Shown here: positions 2,846 to 19,153 of the stretch, piece after piece
Numbering within the stretch: the stretch's first letter is position 1
How the letters are laid out: the number at the start of each line of letters is the position of its first letter
Assembly: GCA_964394625.1 (NCBI GenBank)
Contig: CAYMYK010000005.1
Location: forward strand, 1-47,612
Length of the DNA: 47,612 nucleotides
Direction: 5' to 3'
From: an uncultured Pirellulales bacterium
GTDB lineage: Bacteria > Planctomycetota > Phycisphaerae > Sedimentisphaerales > Anaerobacaceae
Notes under the pieces: generated by a model
Database searches by the model: none
Seen by the model: only the letters and a program-made list of their open reading frames with translations
What the model was told of the DNA's origin: nothing
Made by a program: the position numbers and the translations under genes

Positions 2846-5800
2846 GTGTTCAGGATGGACGCAAAGAGAAAAGCAGGCAGCAATAATGTTATGCAAGAGG
2901 AGAGTTCCGGCGGGCAGAGGTTTGTCCCGACCTGTCCGGTATGCGGTGAGAAGCACTGGCCTCACCATCCTCTGGTTCCGTGTGTCAATGCGAAGAAGGT
3001 AAAGGCAAAGGCCAGGGCGGAGGCGAAGCGAAAAGCAAAGGAACAGCGAGAGCGAAAGGCCGAGGCGAAGCGCAAGGCCAAAGAGCAGGTGAGGGCGGCC
3101 AGGGCGGCTCGGGCTGAGGAGAGGGCGAAAGAAAGGGCGGAGGAAAAGGCGAGGCAGCAGGCGTACGAAGATGCGATAGCACGTGCGAATGAGAGTGCTG
3201 ATGACGAGGCGAGGGCGCGGGCGGATGCGGAGCAGAGGGCCGAGTCGGCGGCAAAGACACGGGACGTTGCTGTCGAGAAGGCCAGGACTGATGCGCTGGC
3301 GAGAGAGCGGACTGAGAAGGAGCTGAAGGGCCGGCTTGCGGAAAAGAGCCGGGCATACGAACTGGCGATAGAGCAGTCGCAGCGCAAGCTCGCAGAGCAG
3401 CAAAAGGCGCGTGCGGAGCTGCAAGAGAAACTCTCGGCCGAGACAAGTGCGCGGGCCGGGCTTGAAGAGATGCTTGCCGCCGAGCAGGCGGCCAGAAGTG
3501 CCGCCGAGGAAAAGGCGCAGCGAGAGGGTCTCGAGAGGGCGCAGGCCGAGTCGAGCTTGAAGGAAAAGGTGCGGCTGTACGGTGAGTCGCTGGCGGAGAC
3601 GGAAGAGAAATTAAGGGTTGAAAGTCAGGCGAGGGTCCAGGCCGAGCAGAAGGTGGAGGATTACGGCGGGCAGTTGGCGCGGCTTCGGGAACAGTTCGAG
3701 GCGCAAGGCGAGACGACGGCGGCCCTGGAGCAGAGCATGCAGGCCCAGGAGCAGGCGCGGATGCGCGCCGAGCAGCGGGCACAGGCGGAGCTCGAAAGGC
3801 GTGCGCAGGCGCAGACGCGGGCGGAGATTGCCGAACGCAGGGCCGAAGTGGAGGCGCAAGAGCGGGCTCAAACGCTCGAAAAGGCGAAAGGCGAATTAGA
3901 ACAACGGGCGAGGGAGTATGGAGAACAGATAGCAAGGGCACAGGAGAGGGCGAGGACGCTTGGTGTGGAGATTGAGCAGGCCCGCAGCAATTTAGCGGCT
4001 GAGGAGCAGGCGAGGGCAGAGGCGGAGAGTAAGCTTCAAGAATACGCCGAGGAGCTTGAGAAGGCGAAAGAAAAGATCGAGTTTGAAAGTGCTGCGAGAG
4101 GAGCGATAGAGGAGCAATTAGGCGATGAGAGTCAGGCGAGGGAAGAGGCGGAGGCGGAGGCGAGGCGGCTGGGAGAGTCGCTGGCTGAATTGGAGAAGCG
4201 TATCGAGGCACAGGAGCGGGCGGCGGCGGAGTTGCGGGTGGAGATAAACGAGGAGATTGAGGCAAGGTTGAAGGCGGAGGACAGGACCGGTACCGAACAG
4301 CAGGAAAGGGTAAAGGCCCAGAGACAACTCGAGCAGCTCGGGGAGTCATTAGAACAATTGCAGGAGCTGAACGAGGAGCAGGCGAAGAGATTAACGCAGA
4401 CGGAGGAGAAGTTAGAGGCGCAGAGGCGGGAGCGGATTGACGCCGAGCAGAGGGCCGAGAGAGAGATTGAGAAACGGGCAAAGGCCGAGGCACTGGCACA
4501 GGCGGCTGAGAAGGGCCGGGCTGAAGCATTGGAGCAAGTAAGACGGGAAGTAGAGGCGTCAGAGCAGGCCGAGCAACGCGCCAAGGCAGAATTAGAGCGC
4601 AAGGCGATGGAATACGGTGAGCGAATAGCGGAGCAGCGGGAACGGCTGAGCAACGCAACGCAAAGCAAAGAGGATGCCGAGCAGCAGAGCGAAGAGCAAC
4701 GGCTGGCGAGAGAGCAGGCCGAGCAAAACGTACGGGAGAGTGGGGAAAGAATAGCGGAATTGGCAGAGCAGCTTGGGACGGAGGCGCAGAACAGACAGGA
4801 GCTTGAGCAGCGGCTGCAGAGTGAAACCGAAGCGAGGTTGGGAGTTGAGGAGAGGGTGGAGCGTTTAGGCCAGGAGCGGACGACGGCCCTGGCGAAGGCG
4901 GAGGCGGCTGAGCGGGCCAGGGCGGATGCACAGGCCAGGGCTGACGAGCAGGAGCGTCTGAGAGAGGCGTTCGAGCAGCGAATGCGGGCGGAGCTTGAGG
5001 AGAAAACGCGGAGCTACAGTGAGCAGGTTGCTACGGCTGAGGAAAAGGCAAGAGCGAGTAGCGAGGCGAGGACGGAGGCAGAGGAGCGGCTGCAAGCCGA
5101 GGTTGGATTAAGGGGGCAGGCAGAGGGTAAGGTCAGGGAGTATGGTGAAGAGCTTTCGCAGATTAGAAAGACGCTTGAGGACGAAATCGGGGCCCGCGGG
5201 CGGGCGGAGCAGGAATTAGAAGGCGCCCGAGCGGCTGAGAATGAGGCGCTGGGGCAGGCAAAGGGCTATGGAGAGAAGGCGGATGAATTAGGCAGGCAGC
5301 TGGAGCAGCAGAGTGCATTGTTGGCGAAGATGGGGCAGGAGCTTGCGGCAGAAAGGACAGCGAGGGGGCAGGCGGAAGAGGAGCTTCGAGAGGTGAGTCG
5401 GGAGAAGGCGGCGGCGGTAGCGGCCGGGCAAGTGCAGGAGCGGGTGCGGGCAGATGCGGAGCAGAGGGCTAAGCTGGCGACGGAAGAGAAGGCGGTATTG
5501 CAGCAGCACTTAGGCGAGGCGCTGCAGGCGAAGAATATGGCGGGGCAGCAGGCACGTCAGGAGACGGAGGCGAGACAGAAGTCACAGGACAAGGCCCAGC
5601 GTGAGGCGCAGAGGCGGGCGGAGGCGGAGGCGATAAGAGATGCGGCTGAGAAGGCACGGGCTGAGGCGGAGACTAAGGCGACGGCTGAGGCACAGGAGCG
5701 GGCGCGAATTGAGAAGCAGACGAGTGCGGAATTAGAGCAGAAGGCCCGGCATTACGGCGAGCAAATAGCGGCTGCGCAGGAGAAGGTAAGGTCGTACGAG

Positions 5801-8800
5801 AGGGAGCTTGCGCAGTTGACCGAGCGGCTTGGTGCGGAGAAGAAGAGACGGGCTGAGGCGCAAGAAAAGCTGCAGGCGCAGACAGAGGCGAACCGGCAGG
5901 CGCAGGAGCGGGCGAAAAAGCAGGCGGAAGAGCTTGCGAGGGTACACAAGGAGACAGAGGCGCTGGTGCAGGGTAAAAGTGAGCTGGAAGATAAGCTGGA
6001 CGCCCAGAGTGAGGTGCGTGCGAGGACGGAGCGGACGGCGAAGCAAGCGGGCGAGAGGATTGCGGCCCTTGAGCTCCGGCTCAGGCAGGCGACGGATTCG
6101 CGTGCGGAACGGATTGCGAAAGTCGAGGCCAAGCAAAGGGCGAAGGCACAGGCGCAGGCGAACGAAGAGGTCAGGCGGGAGGCGGCCGAACAGGCCGAGG
6201 CGGCAGCAAAGTTGACCGAGCAGTTGCAGCAGCGAATTGCGGAAGCGACCGATGCGCGGCGGCGAGCGGAGGAGAATGTGGTGACGGCGGCGGAAGAAAG
6301 AGCGAAGGCACAAGCGGTTTTGCAAGCGGAGACAAAGGCGAGGATAGAAACGGAGCAGCGGCTTAGAACAGAGGCACAGGCGAGAGAGCAGACGGAGGAG
6401 AAGGCCAGGGCCGAGCTCGAGCAAAAGGCCGAGCAGTTCGGACGGCAGATTGCGACGGCGCAGCAGAGCGCTCGGTCGCTTGCCGAGCAATTGCGTGGTG
6501 CACAGGAGCAGTTGGAGATTGAGGGGCGGCTGCGGAGCGAATCGGATGAGAAGGCGGAACAATATGCCGAGACTCTTGAGCGGATTCGGGGCCAATTGGA
6601 GGCGCAGAGACAGGCAGGGGCTGAGCTTGAGGAGAAGCTGAGTGGGGCGATTGACGACAGAGAGGGACTTGCGGCGGAGTTAGCAAAGCAGGGCGAGCAG
6701 GCGGCCCAGATGAAGCAAAGGAGTGAGGCGGCAATACAGGGCAGGATTGAGGCGCAGGAGCGATTGAAATCGGAGACGGAGGCACGGCTCAGGGCGGAGC
6801 AGAAGGTGCAATTGGAGGCAGAGCAGAGGGTGAAGGCACAGGCGCAGGCCGAGACCGAGGCGAGGGCAAGGGCGCAGGCAGAGCAAAGGGCAAATGAGCA
6901 GGCCCGTTTGAGAGAGGCAGTGCAGCAGCAGGTAAAGGCGGAATTGGAGGAGAAGGCGAGACACTACGGCGAGCAAATAGCCAGGGCTGAGGAGCGGGCG
7001 GCGTCACTTGCCAAGACGCTGAGCAAGGCACAGCAGGAGACGGCGGAGGCGACACAGGCAAAAGCTCAAGTGGAAGAGCAGCTTGGCGGTTACGCCGGCA
7101 GGGTGGAGGATGTTGAGAAGAGGTTAGAGATAGCGGAACAGGCCCGGGCAAATGCGGAAGAAAAGCTCCGGGCGGAGATTGAAACCGCGGCAAATACTGA
7201 AATGCAGGTGCAGAGTGAGGCCCAGCAAAGGGCTAAGGCAGAGTCGCGGGCGGAGCTTGAGGCGAAGGGACGAGTCGAGTCGGAGGAAAGGGCGAAAGCC
7301 GCGGCAAGGGCGCAGGCGCAAGCGGAGCGTGAGGCGAAGGCGGAGCTGGAGGAAAAATCGAAGGCGTTTGAGCAGGCGAGCCGAGAGCTTGCCGAGACGC
7401 TGAGAGGTGAGATGGAGGCACGGATAAAGGCGGAGGAACAGGGCAAGTTGCTGGCTGAGCGATTTGCAGAGATTGAGGCGCAGATGGCGGATGAGGCCAA
7501 GGCAAGGGCTGAGGCGCAACAAGAGTCAAGGCGGTTGGCCGAGGCGCTGGCAGAGTTAAAGAGCAAAGTCGATGCGGCGGCGGAGCGAAGAGTGGAGGCA
7601 GAACAGCGGGCTGAGGAGGAAAAGCAGGCGAGGGTTGGTCTTCAAGAGAAGGAGCAACAGCGGGCCGAGGAAAAGACAAAAGCGGAGGCGCTTGCGGAGG
7701 CGGAGCGAGAGGCGAGGACGGCGGCGGAGGCGGTTGCCGCACGCCAGGTGCGAGCTCGAGAAAATATGGAGCGTGAGATGCGAGTGGAATTGGAAGAGAA
7801 GGCGCGGGCCTACGGCGAGGAGGTTGCAACGGCACGGGCCGGAGCGCGTGCCCTGGAAGAGTCGCTGAGTGAGTTGAAAAGCGAGCTTGCCGCTGAAAGG
7901 CGTGAGCGGGCGGAGATGGAGCAGCGGGCGCAGGAGCAGGCGGCGGCTTTGGTTGAGGCGCAGAGGCAGGCAGAGGAGCAGGCGGGGGCAATTGCCGAGA
8001 GAAAAGAGCAGTTAGAGTACCAGATTGAGGTAAGCAAGAAGGTACAGGCGAATGCTCAGGCATACGCGGAGCGGTTGGCTGAGGTTGAGGAGAAATTAGA
8101 GTGGCTTGAGAAGGCCAGGGCCGAGGCGGAGGAGAAAGAGAGGGCGCAGGCCGAGGAGGTTGCGGCGGCTCAGGAGAAGGCGCGTGGTCTGGCAGAGGTG
8201 CTGGGTGAGACGAAAAAGGAGCTTTCTACTGAGAGGCAGGTACGGGCGGAATTAGAAGAGAAGGCAAATGGGCAGGCGGCGGCTTTGGCTGAGGCGCAGA
8301 GGCAGGCAGAGGAGCAGGCGGGGGCAATTGCCGAGAGAAAAGAGCAGTTAGAGTACCAGATTGAGGTAAGCAAGAAGGTACAGGCGAATGCTCAGGCATA
8401 CGCGGAGCGGTTAGCTGAGGTTGAGGAGAAATTGGAGCGGCTTGAGAAGGCCAGGGCCGAGGCGGAGGAGAAAGAAAGGACGCAGGCCGAGGAGAGAGTG
8501 CAGGCGGAGGAGCAGTTGAACAGTGTCAATGAGAAGGCAGGAGAACTTGAGCGGCAGTTAAGGACTGAGCATAAGGCAAGAGAACAGGCGCAGAACAGTG
8601 CGAAGGCATACGCAGAGAAGATGACCGAGCTGGAAAAGGAGCTGGCGGTGCAGGCGGAGTCGGCAGCGCAGATGAAGAGCAGGATTGAGGCGGAGACGGA
8701 GGCGAGGATACAGGCGGAGGAGAACGCACGGATTAATGCCGAGGCGATGTTGGAAATTAGGGAAAGCATCAAAGAGCAAAGGGCCGGCGGAGCGGAAGTG

Positions 8801-9094
8801 CAAGAGAGGATTGGCGAGGCGGAGCAGGGCGAGCTGACATCAGGTCAGCAGGTTCATCAAAGAGAGCGGACTGCCGTTGGGATTAAGGCAGAGGCAGATG
8901 AGGCGGCAGTAACGGGACAGGCCGACAAGGGGTATGCGCCGATAGAGATTCGTGAGACGGGGGCGAGCCCCCACGGGGCGAGCAATGGTACGTGCGACTG
9001 CTGCGGTCGGGATGATATTGCTCTGACGGATTTGGTGAGAATAGACTCTGGTCATTTGTTCTGTCCGGATTGCCTTGCGGCGCTGGGGAGGTAA
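2846..9094 (+). CDS. Giant 2082-aa A/E/Q/R/K-rich helical protein (coiled coil or ER/K single alpha helix). It has an N-terminal Cys/His cluster and a C-terminal CxxC-x19-CxxC zinc ribbon. No signal peptide or transmembrane segment. Function unknown.
   Basis: A 6249-nt uninterrupted frame with GC3-rich codon usage like its neighbours. The start is GTG 2846 or ATG 2855. The N-terminus reads CPVCGEKHWPHHPLVPC. About 1900 residues follow with heptad-like AE(Q/K)RA composition and almost no aromatics or Pro. The C-terminus reads CDCCGRDDIALTDLVRIDSGHLFCPDC. Confidence 0.8.
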   Translation: MFRMDAKRKAGSNNVMQEESSGGQRFVPTCPVCGEKHWPHHPLVPCVNAKKVKAKARAEAKRKAKEQRERKAEAKRKAKEQVRAARAARAEERAKERAEEKARQQAYEDAIARANESADDEARARADAEQRAESAAKTRDVAVEKARTDALARERTEKELKGRLAEKSRAYELAIEQSQRKLAEQQKARAELQEKLSAETSARAGLEEMLAAEQAARSAAEEKAQREGLERAQAESSLKEKVRLYGESLAETEEKLRVESQARVQAEQKVEDYGGQLARLREQFEAQGETTAALEQSMQAQEQARMRAEQRAQAELERRAQAQTRAEIAERRAEVEAQERAQTLEKAKGELEQRAREYGEQIARAQERARTLGVEIEQARSNLAAEEQARAEAESKLQEYAEELEKAKEKIEFESAARGAIEEQLGDESQAREEAEAEARRLGESLAELEKRIEAQERAAAELRVEINEEIEARLKAEDRTGTEQQERVKAQRQLEQLGESLEQLQELNEEQAKRLTQTEEKLEAQRRERIDAEQRAEREIEKRAKAEALAQAAEKGRAEALEQVRREVEASEQAEQRAKAELERKAMEYGERIAEQRERLSNATQSKEDAEQQSEEQRLAREQAEQNVRESGERIAELAEQLGTEAQNRQELEQRLQSETEARLGVEERVERLGQERTTALAKAEAAERARADAQARADEQERLREAFEQRMRAELEEKTRSYSEQVATAEEKARASSEARTEAEERLQAEVGLRGQAEGKVREYGEELSQIRKTLEDEIGARGRAEQELEGARAAENEALGQAKGYGEKADELGRQLEQQSALLAKMGQELAAERTARGQAEEELREVSREKAAAVAAGQVQERVRADAEQRAKLATEEKAVLQQHLGEALQAKNMAGQQARQETEARQKSQDKAQREAQRRAEAEAIRDAAEKARAEAETKATAEAQERARIEKQTSAELEQKARHYGEQIAAAQEKVRSYERELAQLTERLGAEKKRRAEAQEKLQAQTEANRQAQERAKKQAEELARVHKETEALVQGKSELEDKLDAQSEVRARTERTAKQAGERIAALELRLRQATDSRAERIAKVEAKQRAKAQAQANEEVRREAAEQAEAAAKLTEQLQQRIAEATDARRRAEENVVTAAEERAKAQAVLQAETKARIETEQRLRTEAQAREQTEEKARAELEQKAEQFGRQIATAQQSARSLAEQLRGAQEQLEIEGRLRSESDEKAEQYAETLERIRGQLEAQRQAGAELEEKLSGAIDDREGLAAELAKQGEQAAQMKQRSEAAIQGRIEAQERLKSETEARLRAEQKVQLEAEQRVKAQAQAETEARARAQAEQRANEQARLREAVQQQVKAELEEKARHYGEQIARAEERAASLAKTLSKAQQETAEATQAKAQVEEQLGGYAGRVEDVEKRLEIAEQARANAEEKLRAEIETAANTEMQVQSEAQQRAKAESRAELEAKGRVESEERAKAAARAQAQAEREAKAELEEKSKAFEQASRELAETLRGEMEARIKAEEQGKLLAERFAEIEAQMADEAKARAEAQQESRRLAEALAELKSKVDAAAERRVEAEQRAEEEKQARVGLQEKEQQRAEEKTKAEALAEAEREARTAAEAVAARQVRARENMEREMRVELEEKARAYGEEVATARAGARALEESLSELKSELAAERRERAEMEQRAQEQAAALVEAQRQAEEQAGAIAERKEQLEYQIEVSKKVQANAQAYAERLAEVEEKLEWLEKARAEAEEKERAQAEEVAAAQEKARGLAEVLGETKKELSTERQVRAELEEKANGQAAALAEAQRQAEEQAGAIAERKEQLEYQIEVSKKVQANAQAYAERLAEVEEKLERLEKARAEAEEKERTQAEERVQAEEQLNSVNEKAGELERQLRTEHKAREQAQNSAKAYAEKMTELEKELAVQAESAAQMKSRIEAETEARIQAEENARINAEAMLEIRESIKEQRAGGAEVQERIGEAEQGELTSGQQVHQRERTAVGIKAEADEAAVTGQADKGYAPIEIRETGASPHGASNGTCDCCGRDDIALTDLVRIDSGHLFCPDCLAALGR

Positions 9095-9282
9095 GATGGC
9101 CCTGCCATTCCGGGGGAAGGTATAGCAGGGAAACGGTTATTGTCCCGGCTTTCAATTTTGATTTTACGGGGCGGGTAATATGCTTATAATGTGGCCTTTT
9201 TACCGTGTGAACAGCAGGGTATGTAACTCAAACTGAACTACGGTCGGTTTGAGTATGTAATATAACAGGGCTGAGAAAATAA

Positions 9283-10128
9283 ATGTATGAGATTATTGAG
9301 AAGAAGGCGCTTGGGCCGGACGTGACGCAGTATGAGGTCAGGGCGCCGAGGATAGCGAAATCACGCAAGTGCGGCCAGTTCGTGATAGTGCGGGCGTTCG
9401 GGCATTCCGAGCGGATACCGCTGACGATAGCGGATGTGGATGCCGGGCGGGGGACGATAACCTTGATAGTTCAGACGGTTGGCAAGAGCACGCTTGAGAT
9501 GAGGCGGCTCGAGAAGGGACAGGGCTTTGCAGACGTTGCAGGGCCTTTGGGCTTGCCGAGCCATATCGAAAAGTACGGGACGGCGGTTGTGATTGGAGGC
9601 GGCCTGGGCACGGCGGTGGTGTACCCGCAGGCGGTCGCGCTGAAAAGAATAGGCAATGAGGTTATAAGCATTATAGGTGCGCGGACGAAGGAGCTGTTGA
9701 TATTAGAGGAGCTGCTGGGTTCTGTAAGCGACCGGCAGATAGTGACGACCGACGACGGCTCGGCGGGGATGAAGGGTTTTGTGACTGATGCATTGAAGAT
9801 GCTTGTCGGTGAGAGAGAGAGGAGTGTCGGTGCGGTTTATTGTGCGGGGCCTGTGATAATGATGAAGGCGGTTGCGGAGGTGACGAAGCCGTTGAATATA
9901 CGCACTATAGTGAGTTTGAACCCTGTGATGGTCGATGGGACGGGGATGTGCGGTGGCTGTCGAGTGACGGTCGGGGGCGAGAGGAAATTTGCGTGCGTTG
10001 ACGGGCCTGAGTTCGACGGGCACGATGTCGATTTCGACGAGCTGATGGACCGCCTGACGACTTACAGGGACCATGAGCAGAAGACGCTGGAAAGATATAA
10101 AGAGCATAAGTGCAAGTTGGATGAGTGA
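9283..10128 (+). CDS. nfnA: NfnA/SudB-like (PyrK-family) FAD/[2Fe-2S] electron-transfer subunit of NADH-dependent ferredoxin:NADP+ oxidoreductase or sulfide dehydrogenase
   Basis: Ferredoxin-reductase-like FAD/NAD-binding core with a C-terminal Cys cluster (GMCGGCRV...FACVDGPEF), typical of PyrK, SudB and NfnA. It lies immediately upstream of a GltD-like partner. Confidence 0.7.
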   Translation: MYEIIEKKALGPDVTQYEVRAPRIAKSRKCGQFVIVRAFGHSERIPLTIADVDAGRGTITLIVQTVGKSTLEMRRLEKGQGFADVAGPLGLPSHIEKYGTAVVIGGGLGTAVVYPQAVALKRIGNEVISIIGARTKELLILEELLGSVSDRQIVTTDDGSAGMKGFVTDALKMLVGERERSVGAVYCAGPVIMMKAVAEVTKPLNIRTIVSLNPVMVDGTGMCGGCRVTVGGERKFACVDGPEFDGHDVDFDELMDRLTTYRDHEQKTLERYKEHKCKLDE

Positions 10129-10143
10129 ACCGGAACGGCGACG

Positions 10144-11616
10144 ATGAGCGAATCGGAAAAAACACCACAGAGACAGAAGAAGCTGAGCGCGAAAGAGCGG
10201 ATGGGGATACCGCGAGTGGAGATGCCGCAGCGGGACGGCAAAGAGCGAAGCAGGGATTTTGAGGAGGTGAACTTAGGGCTTGGCGAGCGGGCGGCTGTTC
10301 GTGAGGCGCAGCGGTGTCTGCAATGCAAGACGGCGAGGTGCGTTGAGGGATGTCCTGTCGGGATTGATATACCGGGTTTTGTGAAGCTGATAGCGGAGGG
10401 TGACTTTCTGGGTGCGGCTGCGCTTGTTCGGCGTGACAATGATTTGCCCGGGGTGACGGGGCGGGTATGTCCTCAGGAGACTCAGTGCGAGGCCAGATGC
10501 GTTCGGTGCAAGAGCGATGCGCCGGTTGCGATTGGTTGGCTTGAACGCTTCGTAGCGGATTATGAGGTGGAACATCGCAGCGGCCGTCCAAAAGTTTCGG
10601 CTGAAAGAAACGGCAAAAAGGTGGCGTGCATCGGGTCGGGGCCTGCGGGGATTACGTGTGCCGGGCAGCTTGCGAAGGCCGGCTACGACGTTACGGTATT
10701 CGAGGCGTTTCACAAGCCGGGCGGGGTGCTGGTCTATGGGATACCGGAATTTCGTATGCCGAACCGCGTGGTGGCCGACGAGATTGAGAATGTCAAATCG
10801 TTAGGCGTCAAGATTGAAACGAACGTGATTGTGGGCAGGACGGTTACGATTGAGCAGCTTATGGGCGAGGAGGGGTACGATGCGGTGTTTATCGCGGTGG
10901 GGGCGGGGCTGCCGAGCTTTATGAACGTACCTGGTGAGAACTTCAAGGGTGTGTATTCGGCGAACGAGTATCTTACGCGGTCGAACCTGATGGAGGCGTA
11001 CGATGCCAGGTCGGATACGCCGATTATACGGGGCAGGCGGGTATGCGTAATCGGCGGCGGCAATACGGCGATGGACGCGGTGCGGACGAGCAAGCGATTG
11101 GGCGCAAAGCAGAGCATTATTGTCTATAGGCGGGCGAGGGAACAGATGCCGGCCAGGGCCGAGGAGGTCCACCACGCAGAAGAGGAGGATATCCGGTTCG
11201 AATTTTTGACGGCGCCGGTAGAGGTGCTCGGTGACGACAAGGGCTGGGTGAGGGGGCTGCGGTGTATCAGGATGCGATTGGGCGAGCCGGACGAATCGGG
11301 CAGGCGAAGGCCGGTGCCGATTGAGGGCTCGGAATTTGAGATGGAATGCGACTTAGTGATTGTGGCGATTGGGACAAAAGCCAACCCGCTTTTGACAAAA
11401 TCGACGGAGGGGCTTGGCTTGAACAAGTGGGGCTATATCGAGGTTGATGATGAGATGATGACGAGCATTGCCGGGGTGTTTGCGGGGGGGGATATTGTGC
11501 GCGGGTCGGCGACGGTGATTTTGGCGATGGGGGACGGCAAGTGTGCGGCGGCGAGTATCGACAGGTATCTGGCGGGAAGACAGAACGGCGGATGCGGGGG
11601 TCTGCGGCGAGAGTAG
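10144..11616 (+). CDS. nfnB: NfnB/SudA-like glutamate-synthase-small-subunit-family oxidoreductase (two [4Fe-4S] clusters, FAD, NADPH)
   Basis: CLQCKTARCVEGCPVGIDIPGFV is the iron-sulfur motif. VACIGSGPAGITCAGQLAKAGYDVTVFE and VCVIGGGNTAMD are Rossmann folds. IAIGTKANP and FAGGDIVRG are GltD/NfnB signatures. Confidence 0.8.
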   Translation: MSESEKTPQRQKKLSAKERMGIPRVEMPQRDGKERSRDFEEVNLGLGERAAVREAQRCLQCKTARCVEGCPVGIDIPGFVKLIAEGDFLGAAALVRRDNDLPGVTGRVCPQETQCEARCVRCKSDAPVAIGWLERFVADYEVEHRSGRPKVSAERNGKKVACIGSGPAGITCAGQLAKAGYDVTVFEAFHKPGGVLVYGIPEFRMPNRVVADEIENVKSLGVKIETNVIVGRTVTIEQLMGEEGYDAVFIAVGAGLPSFMNVPGENFKGVYSANEYLTRSNLMEAYDARSDTPIIRGRRVCVIGGGNTAMDAVRTSKRLGAKQSIIVYRRAREQMPARAEEVHHAEEEDIRFEFLTAPVEVLGDDKGWVRGLRCIRMRLGEPDESGRRRPVPIEGSEFEMECDLVIVAIGTKANPLLTKSTEGLGLNKWGYIEVDDEMMTSIAGVFAGGDIVRGSATVILAMGDGKCAAASIDRYLAGRQNGGCGGLRRE

Positions 11617-13881: not shown

Positions 13882-16488
13882 ATGTCAGGTAAATCAGCAG
13901 GTGTCGTTGCGTTGATGGTTATATCGGCGGTAGTTTTCGGTGCGACGTATCCGGGTCAGATGGGCGTTAACATTGGTGGTATCGGTGAAGGGGGGGGTAT
14001 ATTTGTCGATATGGCGAAAGAGCACCACCGGTACAGCCGGCTGCCGAGCGGGACGATGGCGTATGACAGTGAGGGTTGGCCTTCGTGTGATGCGCAGCTT
14101 GTTATGGATTTTCGCTTAGTGGCGGAATGGGTTGGAGAGATTGACGACCCGGAAGAGTACCGGTATGACAACACGGGGACGTATAAGTGTTCGTTTGTCG
14201 GGCAGGCGACGTTGAGCAGCACGGGAGCGAGTATTGCGAACAAGAGCTATAATTCAGGGACGAACACGACGACGTTCGATCTTATCATTACGCAGAAGCG
14301 AACGTACTGCCATCTGGGCTTTACGAACACCAAACGGACGGCTGTAAGCAGTACGGATACCGGATTTACGGATTTGAAAATGATCAAGCCGGGGTATGCG
14401 GGTGATACGATGCAGACCTTTACCGATGATTTCATAAACACGCTGACGAGCGCAAGTTTCGGCGTGGTTCGGTATATGAACGTGACGGCGACGAACGGTC
14501 ACGAGGCAACTTATCCTGCGACACTGTCGTGGTCGGACCGCAAGCTTGTGACTGATGCGGCGCAGGTTCCGATCGATGCCATAGGCAAGCCACAGGGGGC
14601 GGCATGGGAGTATGTGATACAGATAGCGAACATGACGGAAATGGACCCATGGATCAACGTGCCGGTCTCAGCGACAACGGATTATGTGACGCAATTAGCG
14701 ACGATGTTCAGAGACAATCTCGACCCGAACCTGCACGTTTACGTTGAGAACAGCAACGAGGTGTGGAACGGTATTTTCTATCAGCAGATTTGGAGTGCGT
14801 CTCAGGCCGGCGCATTGGGGATAGATGAACATGAGAACTACGCACGGCGGACGGTAGAGCTTGCGCAGATATTTGAGAGTGTGTACGGCACGGGTTCTCT
14901 GAACAATCGGGTGCGGGTTATGCTTTGCTGTCACGCCCCGATGCTGAAGTGGTGGGTCGAGACCTATATGATTCCGTACATTAACAGCAACTTCCCTGGC
15001 ACGGCATCTGACTACATATATGCAATAGCGAGACAGACATATTTCGGTGCAGGTGACCCGAGTCCGGACACAAGGACGATTGACCAGCTGCTTGACGCCT
15101 GCATGACGGACATAAACGGGCAGATGAGCGAGACGGGAGGGGGCGAAGCGGGCCGGCTTCAGTGGGTGCAGAAGGCGGCGACGTGGGGACTTGTCGGTGG
15201 AGCGTGCTCTTATGAGGGAGGGTATCACTCCCCGGCGAACGGTGTGCTGGAGAATCTGGACAACAAGATTATGATGCATCGTGTGCCGCGAGGCGGCGAA
15301 GTTCTTAAGTACAATTACGATGATGCGTTCTTTGCGCTTGGAGCCAATATAGCGATACAGTTTACGCTACAGAGCTCTGCCACTCGCTACGGGTTCTGGG
15401 GCCTCACCGACGACTTGGCCAATCCGGATCGTAACTACAAGTTTCAGGCGATGCGTGATGTTTTAGGGGATGAAGCGTTGCTGGCGGACTTTGATAACAG
15501 TGGCATTGTAGATATTATGGACTTCAACGTGATGGCGACCGACTGGATGCTGCAGGATGGTTTCACGGGCTCGCAAGACCCGGGCTACGTTGGTCTTGTT
15601 GCCTTCTGGCCGCTGGACGACTCTTCAGGTGATGTGGCAGTCGATGACTCCGGGAACGCAAGAGACGGGATGTTGGGTTCGGCGGTCGGCGCCGATGCGA
15701 ATGACCCGACGTGGTTTAACGATGTCGAGCGCGGGTGGTGTCTGTATTTTGACGGCGGCGACTACATTCAGTGCGGCGGGGGCAAGAACGCAGGGGCCGA
15801 CCCGTGCGACCCGGGGACATGGACGGACCCGTGTACGTGGGCTGATTTTGCAAATTCGTCATTTACGACATCGGTCTGGATAAACCAGAACGACAGCCCG
15901 GACTGGGGCGTGTTCGTCGGCAAGGGTGAGATTCAGTATAAGCTTCAGTTCCTGCTTGGTCTTGACCTCTTGCACTTTGCGCTTCCGCGGACGCCGGGCG
16001 GCGGATTAGGAGGCAGCACTACGATATTGAACAACCAGTGGTACCACATCGCCGGGCTCTGGGACGAGGATAATGAATCGGCGTACCTTTACCTTGACGG
16101 TGTATTAGACAACTGGATGGATTACGGCACGGCGCATCCGGAGGGCGCCGGGGTGTTTATCGACAATGACTGCAACGTGTTGATTGGTGCGACGGTGAGC
16201 GAGGGTTATCTTGAGGACCCGAACCGGCATAAAATAGGCGGCTGCCCGCTTCGTGGTGACGCGGCGGGATACGCCGAGCGATTCTTTAAGGGCTACCTGA
16301 GTGAAGTCAGGATGTATGAGCGGGCGCTGAACGAACTGGAGATAAAGTATTTAGCCGGTATCCCATCAACATACGTTCCGTTGGATTCCGTTGCGAACAT
16401 ATATGATGAGGAGCCGCAGGGCTTGAAGGCGGTGAATTTCAAAGACTATGCGATACTGGCGGACGAATGGATGGTGGCAGGCCCTTAG
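13882..16488 (+). CDS. Secreted glycoside-hydrolase-like protein. The N-terminus is a TIM-barrel-like catalytic region of uncertain family. The C-terminus carries a dockerin-like Ca-binding repeat, a LamG jellyroll domain and a second dockerin-like half-repeat.
   Basis: Strong SD AAGGAGGAG and an N-terminal signal anchor. YVENSNEVWNG resembles the clan GH-A NEP acid/base region. DFDNSGIVDIMDFNVMATDWM is dockerin-like. CLYFDGGDYIQCGGG...WYHIAGLWDE...YLYLDG is LamG. The C-terminal tail reads LKAVNFKDYAILADEW. Confidence 0.55.
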   Translation: MSGKSAGVVALMVISAVVFGATYPGQMGVNIGGIGEGGGIFVDMAKEHHRYSRLPSGTMAYDSEGWPSCDAQLVMDFRLVAEWVGEIDDPEEYRYDNTGTYKCSFVGQATLSSTGASIANKSYNSGTNTTTFDLIITQKRTYCHLGFTNTKRTAVSSTDTGFTDLKMIKPGYAGDTMQTFTDDFINTLTSASFGVVRYMNVTATNGHEATYPATLSWSDRKLVTDAAQVPIDAIGKPQGAAWEYVIQIANMTEMDPWINVPVSATTDYVTQLATMFRDNLDPNLHVYVENSNEVWNGIFYQQIWSASQAGALGIDEHENYARRTVELAQIFESVYGTGSLNNRVRVMLCCHAPMLKWWVETYMIPYINSNFPGTASDYIYAIARQTYFGAGDPSPDTRTIDQLLDACMTDINGQMSETGGGEAGRLQWVQKAATWGLVGGACSYEGGYHSPANGVLENLDNKIMMHRVPRGGEVLKYNYDDAFFALGANIAIQFTLQSSATRYGFWGLTDDLANPDRNYKFQAMRDVLGDEALLADFDNSGIVDIMDFNVMATDWMLQDGFTGSQDPGYVGLVAFWPLDDSSGDVAVDDSGNARDGMLGSAVGADANDPTWFNDVERGWCLYFDGGDYIQCGGGKNAGADPCDPGTWTDPCTWADFANSSFTTSVWINQNDSPDWGVFVGKGEIQYKLQFLLGLDLLHFALPRTPGGGLGGSTTILNNQWYHIAGLWDEDNESAYLYLDGVLDNWMDYGTAHPEGAGVFIDNDCNVLIGATVSEGYLEDPNRHKIGGCPLRGDAAGYAERFFKGYLSEVRMYERALNELEIKYLAGIPSTYVPLDSVANIYDEEPQGLKAVNFKDYAILADEWMVAGP

Positions 16489-16525
16489 TGTCAAGCAGAA
16501 AAACAAGTTGATGAGGAGAAATATA

Positions 16526-19153
16526 ATGTTCAGCAAAAGTGTGCGGGGTGAAGTTATTGTTTTTTTGACAGTGCTGGCGTTGTTTAGTTGTGCGGTGAGC
16601 CCCTTGCCGGCGAGCGGGCAGACAGTGACGATTGACGAGGGCACGAGGTACCAGACGATAGAGGGCTGGGGGACGTGCACCGGCGGGAGCTTAAGCTACG
16701 ATGCGGATTGGCGGTATGCTTACAAGTATCTCGGGTGTAATCTGCTTCGGTTTCCGATGGGCAAGGAGGTGCTGATAGCACCGGACGGCAATTATGCGAC
16801 GGCTGTGGAATTAGTGGATGATATTAACAGCAACGTCGGTGCGATGGATTTTAACACGCAGGCGGTCGGTGGTGATACGGCGTTGTGGCTTATGGACAAT
16901 GCCCTTGAGCCGGAGCGGGTGAAGATTGTTGGTTCGGTGTGGTCGCCTCCGCACTGGATGAAAGGGCCGACGGGAGCGGAGCAGTATCATGTGACGAACC
17001 CTTCGGTTTTGAAGCCGACACCGTGGCTGAGCGAGGGGACGTGGGGCGACAGTATCGGGGGTCGGCTGCTTCAGGACGCGGGCAATTTAGAGCAGTTCGG
17101 GCGCTACATTGCGGCCTGGGCGAAGGGTTTCGAGAACCACTACGGGATGCCGGTATATGCGGTGAGCTTACAGAATGAGCTTAGTTTTGAAAATCCGTTC
17201 GACAGCTGCACTTACCTGCACGGGTATGGCGAACCTGATCCGATCGGGGGGCAATACTGGCAGTATGCAGGGGCGCTTAAGGCGGTGAAGGATGAGTTTG
17301 CGCAGATGGAGACAGAGCACGGGGCGGGCTTTATGGCTACGCAGATTATGGGGCCTCACATGGCGAGCATAAACACGAGCCCGAGCAGCCCGTGGGCGTT
17401 GAATGACCAGATGCAGTTTATCCAGGCGGTGAAGGACCATGCGGATGCGGGTTTGACAGACTTTTTGCATATTTATACGAATAACTATAGTGCGCCGGCG
17501 TATTCGAGGGCGAAGATGTGGCGGGCGTACTGGGAGGGTAAGGATTCGATGCCCGGTGAGCCGTGGGCCGGCTGGCTTTATGCTTCGGGTATAAGCAGCG
17601 ACGGGAAAAAATCGTGGAATTCGGAGGCGGGTGGACACGGTACGAACTGGAACGGCTGTCTTGACCTGGCGCAGGACTTACATGACCAGTTGGTGTGGGG
17701 CAATGTGAGCGCATATATTTACTGGCAGTTTGCCAACAGCGGTGTTGAGACGAGTCAGCACGATCTGGTTGCGGCGCCGGATCTGGCCAGGCCGACGAAG
17801 AGCAAGAAGTACTGTGCGGCGAAACACTTCTTCAGGGCAATTCGGCCCGGGGCCGAGCGTGTGTCGGCGACTTTCGCCGGCGGCAACAGCTCATACGGGT
17901 ACGGCAGTGACCCGATGCGGACGGATTTGAGCTTGAACGTTAGCGCTTACGTGCACGACGAAGACGAGACGGTTACGATTGTCCTGGTGAACATGCGGGC
18001 GAACAATTATTCGGTGACAATCAATGTGCCGCCGCTTTTCGGGATTACGGTGTACAGCGTTCACCGCTCGAGCGCAAGCGAGAACTTCAAGCAGTTGAGT
18101 GATTTGGCCGTATCGGGCGGTCAGGTATCGGTGACGGTGCCCGGTGAGAGCGTTATGACGCTTCACGGGCCGCCTTTGATTGACTTAGAGGCGGATTTCA
18201 ATCACGATGATGTCGTCGATATTAACGACCTGAACACAATGGCGGCGGACTGGATGATGACGGATAGGTTCGAGGGGGCGAAGGACCCGGGGACGGAGAA
18301 CCTTGTGGTGTGCTGGGATATGAACGACCCGAACGACGGGACGACAGTATCGGATTCGAGCGGCAACGAGCATACGGGGGTGTTCGGGAGCGGCAGTTAT
18401 GACCCGAGCTGGTACAACGACGGTCAGCGGGGTTGGTGTCTGTACTTTGACGGAACCGATTACGTGGATTGCGGCGGAGGTAAGGATGCGGGGCAGCCGT
18501 ACACATGGGCGGACTTCAACGAGTCGTCATTCACGTTGGCCGGCTGGGTAAAACAGGAGGCGACACTTGGCTGGGCGAACTTCGTATCGAAGGGTGAGAT
18601 TCACTGGAAGCTGCAGATGCTCTTAGGGTTGAACTATTCGCACTTTGCGTTCCCGAGGGCACCAGGAGCAGGTGTTGGAGGAACGAAGCTGTTCACGAAT
18701 AACAAGTGGTACCATGTAGCAGGTGTCTGGGACGACGAGCAGGAAGTGGCACGTCTCTACCGGGACGGATTTTTAGACGGAGTGCTCTATTGGGGTGATG
18801 CGCATCCCGATAGGTCGGGGATATTTGTGGACAATGACTGCAACGTACTGCTCGGTGCGACAGTAAGTGAAGACTACGAAGAGCTGCCGGAGCGGCACAA
18901 GATAGGCGGCTGTCCGATACGTGACGGGGCGAACTATGCGGAGCTGTTCTTCAGGGGTTGGCTGAGCGATGTGCGGCTGTACGATCGCGCGCTGATAAAG
19001 GACGAGATAAAGTATTTAGCGGGCGGCGAGGCAGTGTACTATGAGTTAGAGTCGCCGGCGAACGTATGGGATGAGGAGCCAGCCGGCTTGAAGGCGGTGA
19101 ATTTCAAAGACTATGCGATACTGGCGAACGAGTGGAGGAGGGCGCTTAATTAG
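16526..19153 (+). CDS. Secreted GH30-like glycoside hydrolase carrying the same C-terminal dockerin-like/LamG/dockerin-like module
   Basis: ATG 16526 with SD GAGGAG 7 nt upstream, then a signal peptide MFSKSVRGEVIVFLTVLALFSCAVSPLPASGQ. The N-terminal motif TIDEGTRYQTIEGWGT resembles the GH30 Q-x-I-(D/E)-G-(F/W)-G start. The C-terminal module is paralogous to 13882-16488. The track start at 16448 lies inside the upstream gene. Confidence 0.6.
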   Translation: MFSKSVRGEVIVFLTVLALFSCAVSPLPASGQTVTIDEGTRYQTIEGWGTCTGGSLSYDADWRYAYKYLGCNLLRFPMGKEVLIAPDGNYATAVELVDDINSNVGAMDFNTQAVGGDTALWLMDNALEPERVKIVGSVWSPPHWMKGPTGAEQYHVTNPSVLKPTPWLSEGTWGDSIGGRLLQDAGNLEQFGRYIAAWAKGFENHYGMPVYAVSLQNELSFENPFDSCTYLHGYGEPDPIGGQYWQYAGALKAVKDEFAQMETEHGAGFMATQIMGPHMASINTSPSSPWALNDQMQFIQAVKDHADAGLTDFLHIYTNNYSAPAYSRAKMWRAYWEGKDSMPGEPWAGWLYASGISSDGKKSWNSEAGGHGTNWNGCLDLAQDLHDQLVWGNVSAYIYWQFANSGVETSQHDLVAAPDLARPTKSKKYCAAKHFFRAIRPGAERVSATFAGGNSSYGYGSDPMRTDLSLNVSAYVHDEDETVTIVLVNMRANNYSVTINVPPLFGITVYSVHRSSASENFKQLSDLAVSGGQVSVTVPGESVMTLHGPPLIDLEADFNHDDVVDINDLNTMAADWMMTDRFEGAKDPGTENLVVCWDMNDPNDGTTVSDSSGNEHTGVFGSGSYDPSWYNDGQRGWCLYFDGTDYVDCGGGKDAGQPYTWADFNESSFTLAGWVKQEATLGWANFVSKGEIHWKLQMLLGLNYSHFAFPRAPGAGVGGTKLFTNNKWYHVAGVWDDEQEVARLYRDGFLDGVLYWGDAHPDRSGIFVDNDCNVLLGATVSEDYEELPERHKIGGCPIRDGANYAELFFRGWLSDVRLYDRALIKDEIKYLAGGEAVYYELESPANVWDEEPAGLKAVNFKDYAILANEWRRALN

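Follow-up and report, generated by a model that had tools for sequence, protein, structure and literature searches.

That gene conversion homogenises intragenic repeats in repetitive genes, and that unequal recombination changes the length of such genes, is textbook knowledge. The streptococcal M and M-like proteins, which form surface fibrils in Gram-positive bacteria, are α-helical coiled-coil rods with in-frame repeat blocks, and intragenic recombination alters their copy number and length. Crescentin and the Streptomyces proteins FilP and Scy are cytoplasmic coiled-coil rods, from hundreds to over 1000 residues in length, each restricted to particular lineages. For the spider silk (spidroin) genes, intragenic repeats under concerted evolution have been described (PMC3933166, PMC3563967). 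The element described here, a pair of near-identical in-frame tandem segments, lies in a giant open reading frame (ORF) of 2082 amino acids on contig CAYMYK010000005.1 (assembly GCA_964394625.1) of an uncultured planctomycete; the whole stretch of 47,612 nucleotides that was analysed is hereafter called the window.

Like the spidroin genes as described in the same reports (PMC3933166, PMC3563967), the planctomycete gene is very long, is built of in-frame tandem units bounded by short conserved domains at the N- and C-termini, has been homogenised within the gene to the point that paralogous units are closer than orthologous ones, and belongs to a class of genes that are hard to assemble. Spidroins, however, are eukaryotic, secreted, β-sheet- and glycine-rich fibres with many near-identical units, whereas the gene in the window would encode a bacterial α-helical rod with only two homogenised units, the other modules being old and diverged. 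With the M proteins it shares a coiled-coil rod with in-frame tandem repeats, and its family shows variation in the number of repeat units. The repeat most probably represents a rod module of 336 nt (112 amino acids, 16 heptads) that was duplicated in tandem and in frame long ago and part of which appears to have been homogenised repeatedly by intragenic gene conversion (Table 1).

Table 1 Features of the giant gene and its tandem repeat, with positions in the window
Feature	Position	Strand	Remarks
Giant ORF, host of the repeat (2082 aa)	2846..9094	+	Predicted heptad coiled coil forming a rod; both ends carry short conserved Cys/His motifs
N-terminal conserved motif RFVPTCPVCGEKHWPHHPLVPCVNAKKVKA, putative zinc knuckle	2918..3007	+	97 % identical to relative L006, most conserved 30-aa window; K/R-rich stretch next to it
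Diverged 5′ part of unit 1 (YGEEVATA... module)	7800..7935	+	67 % identical to 8136-8271, 84 % to positional counterpart in contig L040; never homogenised with unit 2
Homogenised tract, copy 1	7936..8158	+	6 mismatches in 223 nt against 8272-8494; likely conversion recipient in 7936-8016
Diverged 5′ part of unit 2	8136..8271	+	94 % identical to positional counterpart in L040, 62-67 % to unit 1 sequences
Homogenised tract, copy 2	8272..8494	+	Likely donor for 7936-8016
C-terminal conserved motif CDCCGRDD...IDSGHLFCPDC, putative zinc finger or ribbon	8993..9091	+	Conserved in 34 genome loci

The first-pass annotation, made from the sequence alone, had reported a near-identical 218-bp tandem pair with a period of 336 bp, the remainder of each unit having diverged, and this description was borne out. 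Between 7941-8158 and 8277-8494, which start 336 nt apart, 212 of the 218 bases are the same (97.2 %), and the six mismatches (7953, 8077, 8098, 8102, 8140 and 8144) comprise three synonymous changes and the three replacements given in that annotation (V/A, W/R and A/T). The exact tract starts 5 nt before the limit given there, so that the same six mismatches fall in 223 nt, and the longest exact run common to both tracts is 123 nt. The period equals 112 codons, and the two copies stand head to tail and in frame within the ORF. The repeated stretch (7800-8494) is 2.07 units long, and for this reason the diverged part of unit 2 overlaps the final 23 nt of the copy 1 tract.

As a control for chance, every 218-nt window of the giant gene was compared with every in-frame shifted copy. 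The background in-frame self-identity of the gene was 35.6 % (standard deviation 4.7) and the next-best pair reached 64.7 %; the repeat is real and far above chance or the low-complexity background of A, E, R and Q. The 136-nt 5′ flanks are 67 % identical in register, a level which is itself extreme, being reached by about 1e-5 of the 135-nt windows of the background, and 3′ of the tracts (8159 onward against 8495 onward) the identity is near background. The 336-nt period went unreported by Tandem Repeats Finder, whereas another repeat search detected it (family D1).

Public metagenome contigs were scanned with degenerate patterns; the YQIEVSKKVQA pattern gave no match and the ERLAEVEEKLE pattern gave one, the 2066-nt metagenome contig Ga0307427_1021918 (hereafter L040). 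This contig is colinear with positions 7300-9121 of the window at about 88 % identity and likewise contains two units. The copies of the window (w1, w2) and of L040 (m1, m2) were compared column by column. In the flank (7800-7935) the positional counterparts were closest (w1-m1 84 %, w2-m2 94 %, paralogues 62-67 %), with 33 positional informative sites and 1 concerted. This grouping by position in the flank places the duplication before the separation of the window and L040 lineages. In the segment 7936-8016, by comparison, w1 and w2 were 97 % identical and both were about 88 % identical to m2, while m1 was 57-66 % identical to all others (63 % to w1) and differed alone at 25 sites; there were no positional sites. 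In the segment 8017-8141 all four copies were 92-97 % identical, with no positional and two concerted sites (8031 and 8068), at which neither window copy agrees with either L040 copy, a lineage-specific difference. The proportion of positional to concerted sites differed between flank and tract (Fisher p = 0.005). The near-identical tract of L040 spans 126 nt (8016-8141, 2 mismatches) as against 223 nt in the window. Over part of the unit, then, paralogues are closer to each other than positional orthologues are, and the tract has sharp limits which differ between the two lineages (7936-8158 and 8016-8141), as is characteristic of concerted evolution.

These patterns are what would be left if the 336-nt module of the rod had been duplicated in tandem before the split from the L040 lineage, and if non-reciprocal recombination between the two copies had then repeatedly homogenised part of the unit. 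After the split, a conversion from copy 2 to copy 1 would have taken place in the window lineage. Copy 2 also carries four private substitutions (8413, 8434, 8438 and 8476, with partners at 8077, 8098, 8102 and 8140). The m1 patch diverges from the copy 2 type by 34-43 %, which is the same as the divergence between paralogues in the flank and is what an unconverted ancestral copy 1 would be expected to show.

Several points weigh against this history. L040, a 2-kb metagenome contig, is the single close relative, and the polarity of the events rests on two genomes without a good outgroup. Homogenisation of the common tract after the split is backed by just two concerted sites, no copy-number variant of this 336-nt unit was seen (two copies in both the window and L040), and both assemblies were taken as deposited. 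The function proposed for the protein below derives from sequence features only. In addition, the divergent segment of L040 copy 1 could have been imported from another strain. Allelic recombination between strains would then have made the mosaic, the long tract would be ancestral, L040 copy 1 would have gained a foreign patch of 80 nt, and no new event would be needed in the window. The strongly mosaic identity of the window and L040, which ranges from 100 % to 66 % per 100 nt, favours such an exchange. The divergence of the patch fits an unconverted ancestral copy 1, however, and when an alternative donor for it was sought within the gene none was found, and we consider import rather unlikely. 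It would, moreover, still require an earlier intragenic conversion to account for copies of 97 % identity beside flanks of 67 %. Intragenic conversion is required under either history of the extra 81 nt, whether by conversion in the window or by a foreign patch in L040 copy 1.

The identity of the window and L040 over 7300-9121 was 100 % in the first 100 nt, 66 % in 7900-8000, 97 % in 8100-8200 and 73-78 % near 8800-8980, with indels of 6 and 15 nt near 8887 and 8967. This mosaic suggests recombination among strains within the giant gene.

Two origins had been offered for the repeat in the first-pass annotation, a very recent segmental duplication or ongoing intragenic gene conversion, and the four-way comparison with L040 favours the second. 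A one-step, very recent tandem duplication of the 336-nt unit without conversion would account for the 97 % identity over 218-223 nt and the exact in-frame period, and the nearest full-length relative (L006, positions 4217-10480) has only one recognisable core. Such a duplication predicts even divergence along the unit, however, whereas 6 differences in 223 nt were seen beside about 44 in 136 nt. Both units, with flanks specific to their position (the 33 positional sites), are present in L040 despite its overall divergence of 12 %, and the duplication must therefore be older than that split. A recent duplication is thus very improbable.

Still less probable, to the point of being negligible, is that the protein has the same binding site twice and that strong purifying selection keeps the copies identical without recombination. 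The tract does hold one of about a dozen islands conserved in L006, AQAYAERLAEVEEKLE, which is 73-75 % conserved there, compared with 52-54 % for the protein overall, and highly conserved in L040. The third codon positions are also the same, however, with 3 synonymous differences in 223 nt beside a nucleotide divergence of about 33 % in the adjoining flank, and because identity extends to synonymous sites, selection on the protein is insufficient. Selection would also leave unexplained why window copy 1 has copy 2 sequence in 7936-8016 which is absent from copy 1 of L040.

An assembly artefact, in which the repeat was falsely expanded or copy 2 sequence was misplaced into copy 1, was considered with regard to the nature of the data: the window is a whole contig of the metagenome type, related contigs break near the giant gene, and the catalogued C-terminal relatives are all fragments, which indicates that such genes assemble badly. 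The two-unit layout is, however, present in two independent assemblies, being identical in the diverged contig L040. The six differing sites and the longest exact run of 123 nt are resolvable with common maximum k-mer sizes, both copies have unique flanks, and a junction of flank to tract needs real supporting sequence. In particular, mis-traversal of an L040-like repeat graph could not create the junction of unique flank and copy 2-like sequence seen in window copy 1. An artefact is an unlikely source of the repeat, and we give it very little credence.

The first-pass annotation had further described the repeat as a hotspot for RecA-mediated expansion or contraction in steps of 112 amino acids. 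Such steps are plausible, given the 123-nt exact run, which could serve as substrate for unequal recombination or replication slippage, and a different unit that varies in copy number in relatives; they were not observed for the 336-nt unit, and the involvement of RecA was an assumption, as slippage during replication is another route by which direct repeats lying close together can rearrange. With a coiled-coil rise of 0.148 nm per residue, 112 residues correspond to about 16.6 nm of rod, and an unequal event would add or remove this length while leaving the heptad register intact. Comparison of repeat counts in orthologues, as proposed in the same annotation, gave two copies in the window and L040 and one clear counterpart of the core in the more distant L006. 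A possible diverged second core in L006 (amino acids 1840-1905) scored no better than background and was discarded.

The residues A, E, R and Q make up 63 % of the giant protein. Its hydrophobic periodicity peaks at 3.516 amino acids with a spectral power of 8.0 (median 0.07), and long blocks have a constant heptad register, which is unbroken through both 112-residue units (exactly 16 heptads each). This strong 3.5-residue recurrence of hydrophobic residues identifies the protein, as judged from its sequence, as a heptad coiled coil, and the reading as a single α-helix (ER/K) domain was ruled out on the same grounds. In an AlphaFold monomer model of amino acids 1649-1925 all residues were helical, with a predicted local distance difference test (pLDDT) score of 85. 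The repeated segment had been described as the only stretch of the protein enriched in Y, W, I and V and as a possible functional insert within the rod. The first statement was too strong: the core, with a density of 0.123 for these residues where the rod averages 0.066 ± 0.023, ranks among the top 3 % of rod windows, a window at amino acid 1359 is equal to it, the total hydrophobic density of the core is ordinary, and tyrosine modules recur about 20 times along the rod. Nor is the segment an insert, since it is in continuous heptad register with its surroundings and is part of the rod.

No hydrophobic segment was found in a scan of the giant protein (maximum 19-residue Kyte-Doolittle mean 0.92), its N-terminus is polar and its C-terminus carries the Cys-rich motif. 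A cytoplasmic location is likely, given the lack of a hydrophobic segment and the Cys/His motifs at both ends. The M proteins, in contrast, carry a signal peptide, are anchored to the wall through LPXTG and face immune selection, and a wall-anchored fibril of the M-protein type was rejected for want of a signal peptide or membrane anchor. The protein resembles crescentin, FilP and Scy in its long uninterrupted coiled-coil repeats and lineage-restricted distribution; those proteins do not have Cys/His end motifs, and the giant protein has no Pfam or NCBIfam sequence match. Scy and FilP use a 51-residue repeat, whereas the giant rod shows a plain 3.5-residue periodicity. Very long coiled coils are also found in SMC and Rad50 proteins, and Rad50 uses a zinc-binding motif, but the giant protein has neither ATPase head domains nor a hinge. 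The match to the SMC model TIGR02168 was dismissed as coiled-coil noise, as it was confined to amino acids 1738-2013 and scored 20.4 bits against a cut-off of 567.

Searches of Pfam, NCBIfam and PDB sequences with the whole protein and with both ends gave nothing above threshold, and for the N-terminal motif no Pfam family reached the threshold. The C-terminal motif had a pLDDT of about 89 in the AlphaFold model, and a Foldseek search with this model gave weak matches to RING, GATA and LIM zinc fingers (E > 0.1). Directly after the N-terminal Cys/His motif there is a basic stretch (amino acids 47-100, positions 2984-3145) with 22 K and R against 10 D and E in 54 residues, which, to go by its composition, could bind nucleic acid or acidic lipid.

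A profile search of species-representative genomes with the C-terminal motif found 34 loci, all in metagenome-assembled genomes (MAGs) of Planctomycetota, which are labelled Phycisphaerae, Phycisphaerales, Sedimentisphaerales, Planctomycetota or, in third-party MAGs, 'Pirellulales'. In about 28 of the 34 loci the N-terminal motif (FVPTCxICGEKHWPHHPxxPCFNAKKVKE) was present a few kilobases upstream. The distance between the two motifs ranges from about 630 to 2740 residues, an approximately four-fold range of rod length, although some of the short rods may be assembly collapses. The giant proteins of the window and L006 are 52 % identical (BLASTP), whereas the three downstream neighbour genes are 85-87 % identical to those in the L006 genome, which indicates that the rod evolves fast. 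The islands conserved between the two proteins are the N-terminal motif (97 %), the C-terminal motif and about a dozen modules that contain tyrosine and are of the type ELE(E/Q)KARxYGEQIAxA, or YAExL.

Other members of the family carry in-frame tandem units of their own elsewhere in the gene, with periods of 162-528 nt and identities of 80-95 %; those of several members, of 162, 168, 180, 204 and 222 nt, are 87-95 % identical. A different in-frame unit of 402 nt (134 amino acids) is found in related MAGs from peat and fen: L009, L018 and L022 have a single copy, L011 and L015 have two and L012 has three, and this variation shows that gain and loss of rod units occur in the family.

The family appears to be undescribed in the literature that was searched, where no description of it was found. 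A search for full-length homologues was swamped by unrelated coiled-coil proteins; it gave three Ig-like/ParA (immunoglobulin-like/ParA) proteins of Sedimentisphaerales and yielded no true relative, and a search with the duplicated region gave no match. Contigs of close relatives, reached via the neighbouring M90 peptidase, all stop before the giant gene. The C-terminal profile matched 134 clusters among 1.84 billion representatives, all of at most 718 amino acids, and these catalogued relatives are probably gene fragments. The giant protein itself, for which three possible starts were tried, was absent from a collection of 15 billion proteins in which its neighbours were present. A distant relative of the giant gene (L005:2787-15410) is split into six called genes, and ilvD-like and ClpB-like genes on that contig are also split; frameshift errors seem to be numerous on it, much as in a long-read assembly that was left uncorrected.

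Upstream of the giant gene and divergent from it, separated by a spacer of about 1 kb of lower G+C content, is a minus-strand gene (positions 1-1827) with a start near 1815 and the signal peptide MCKKTFFILPAIVLLVLAGSVSAQ, which codes for at least 600 amino acids and continues beyond the left edge of the window. The plus-strand ORF 790-1881 (363 amino acids) was rejected as the upstream neighbour, being a shadow ORF of this gene with no Pfam hit, a junk-like translation and a coding-strand GC skew of -0.17. Most genes of the window have a strong excess of G over C on the coding strand (skew 0.16-0.37 on either strand), on which a weaker plus-strand component is superimposed; the G excess extends beyond the purine-rich giant gene. 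Further downstream, the adjacent genes 13882-16488 and 16448-19153, which as listed overlap by 41 nt, code for proteins of about 870-900 amino acids, each with a Laminin_G_3 (concanavalin-like) domain near the C-terminus, and are probably tandem paralogues.

The behaviour of the repeat is a known one, conversion homogenising intragenic repeats, and the mechanism adds nothing new. The locus does provide a clean, datable example of conversion in an uncultured planctomycete, with tract limits that differ between two close lineages. Since the catalogued C-terminal relatives are all of at most 718 amino acids, surveys based on protein catalogues, in which the giant repetitive genes of this family are fragmented or largely absent, will overlook them.

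The repeat also draws attention to a family of giant coiled-coil proteins, uncharacterised and lineage-restricted, with strongly conserved ends and a fast-evolving rod of about four-fold variation in length. To judge from these features, conserved ends on a variable rod would fit a structural scaffold, tether or spacer. The protein would be a cytoplasmic structural rod or tether whose ends would bind specifically and whose rod would evolve freely in length. The module YAERLAEVEEKLE may be a candidate docking site on the rod. A more specific proposal, which we regard as speculative and on present grounds doubtful, is that the protein would be a cytoskeletal or tethering 'ruler' specific to Phycisphaerae, a coiled coil of about 100-400 nm with zinc-binding knobs at both ends, in which the conserved tyrosine modules, the one within the homogenised tract among them, would be periodic docking sites and conversion would keep two of them alike. 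If this were true, conversion would be favoured for keeping two docking sites identical at a fixed spacing of 16 heptads (about 17 nm), and the length of the rod would be tuned between species through the gain and loss of such units.

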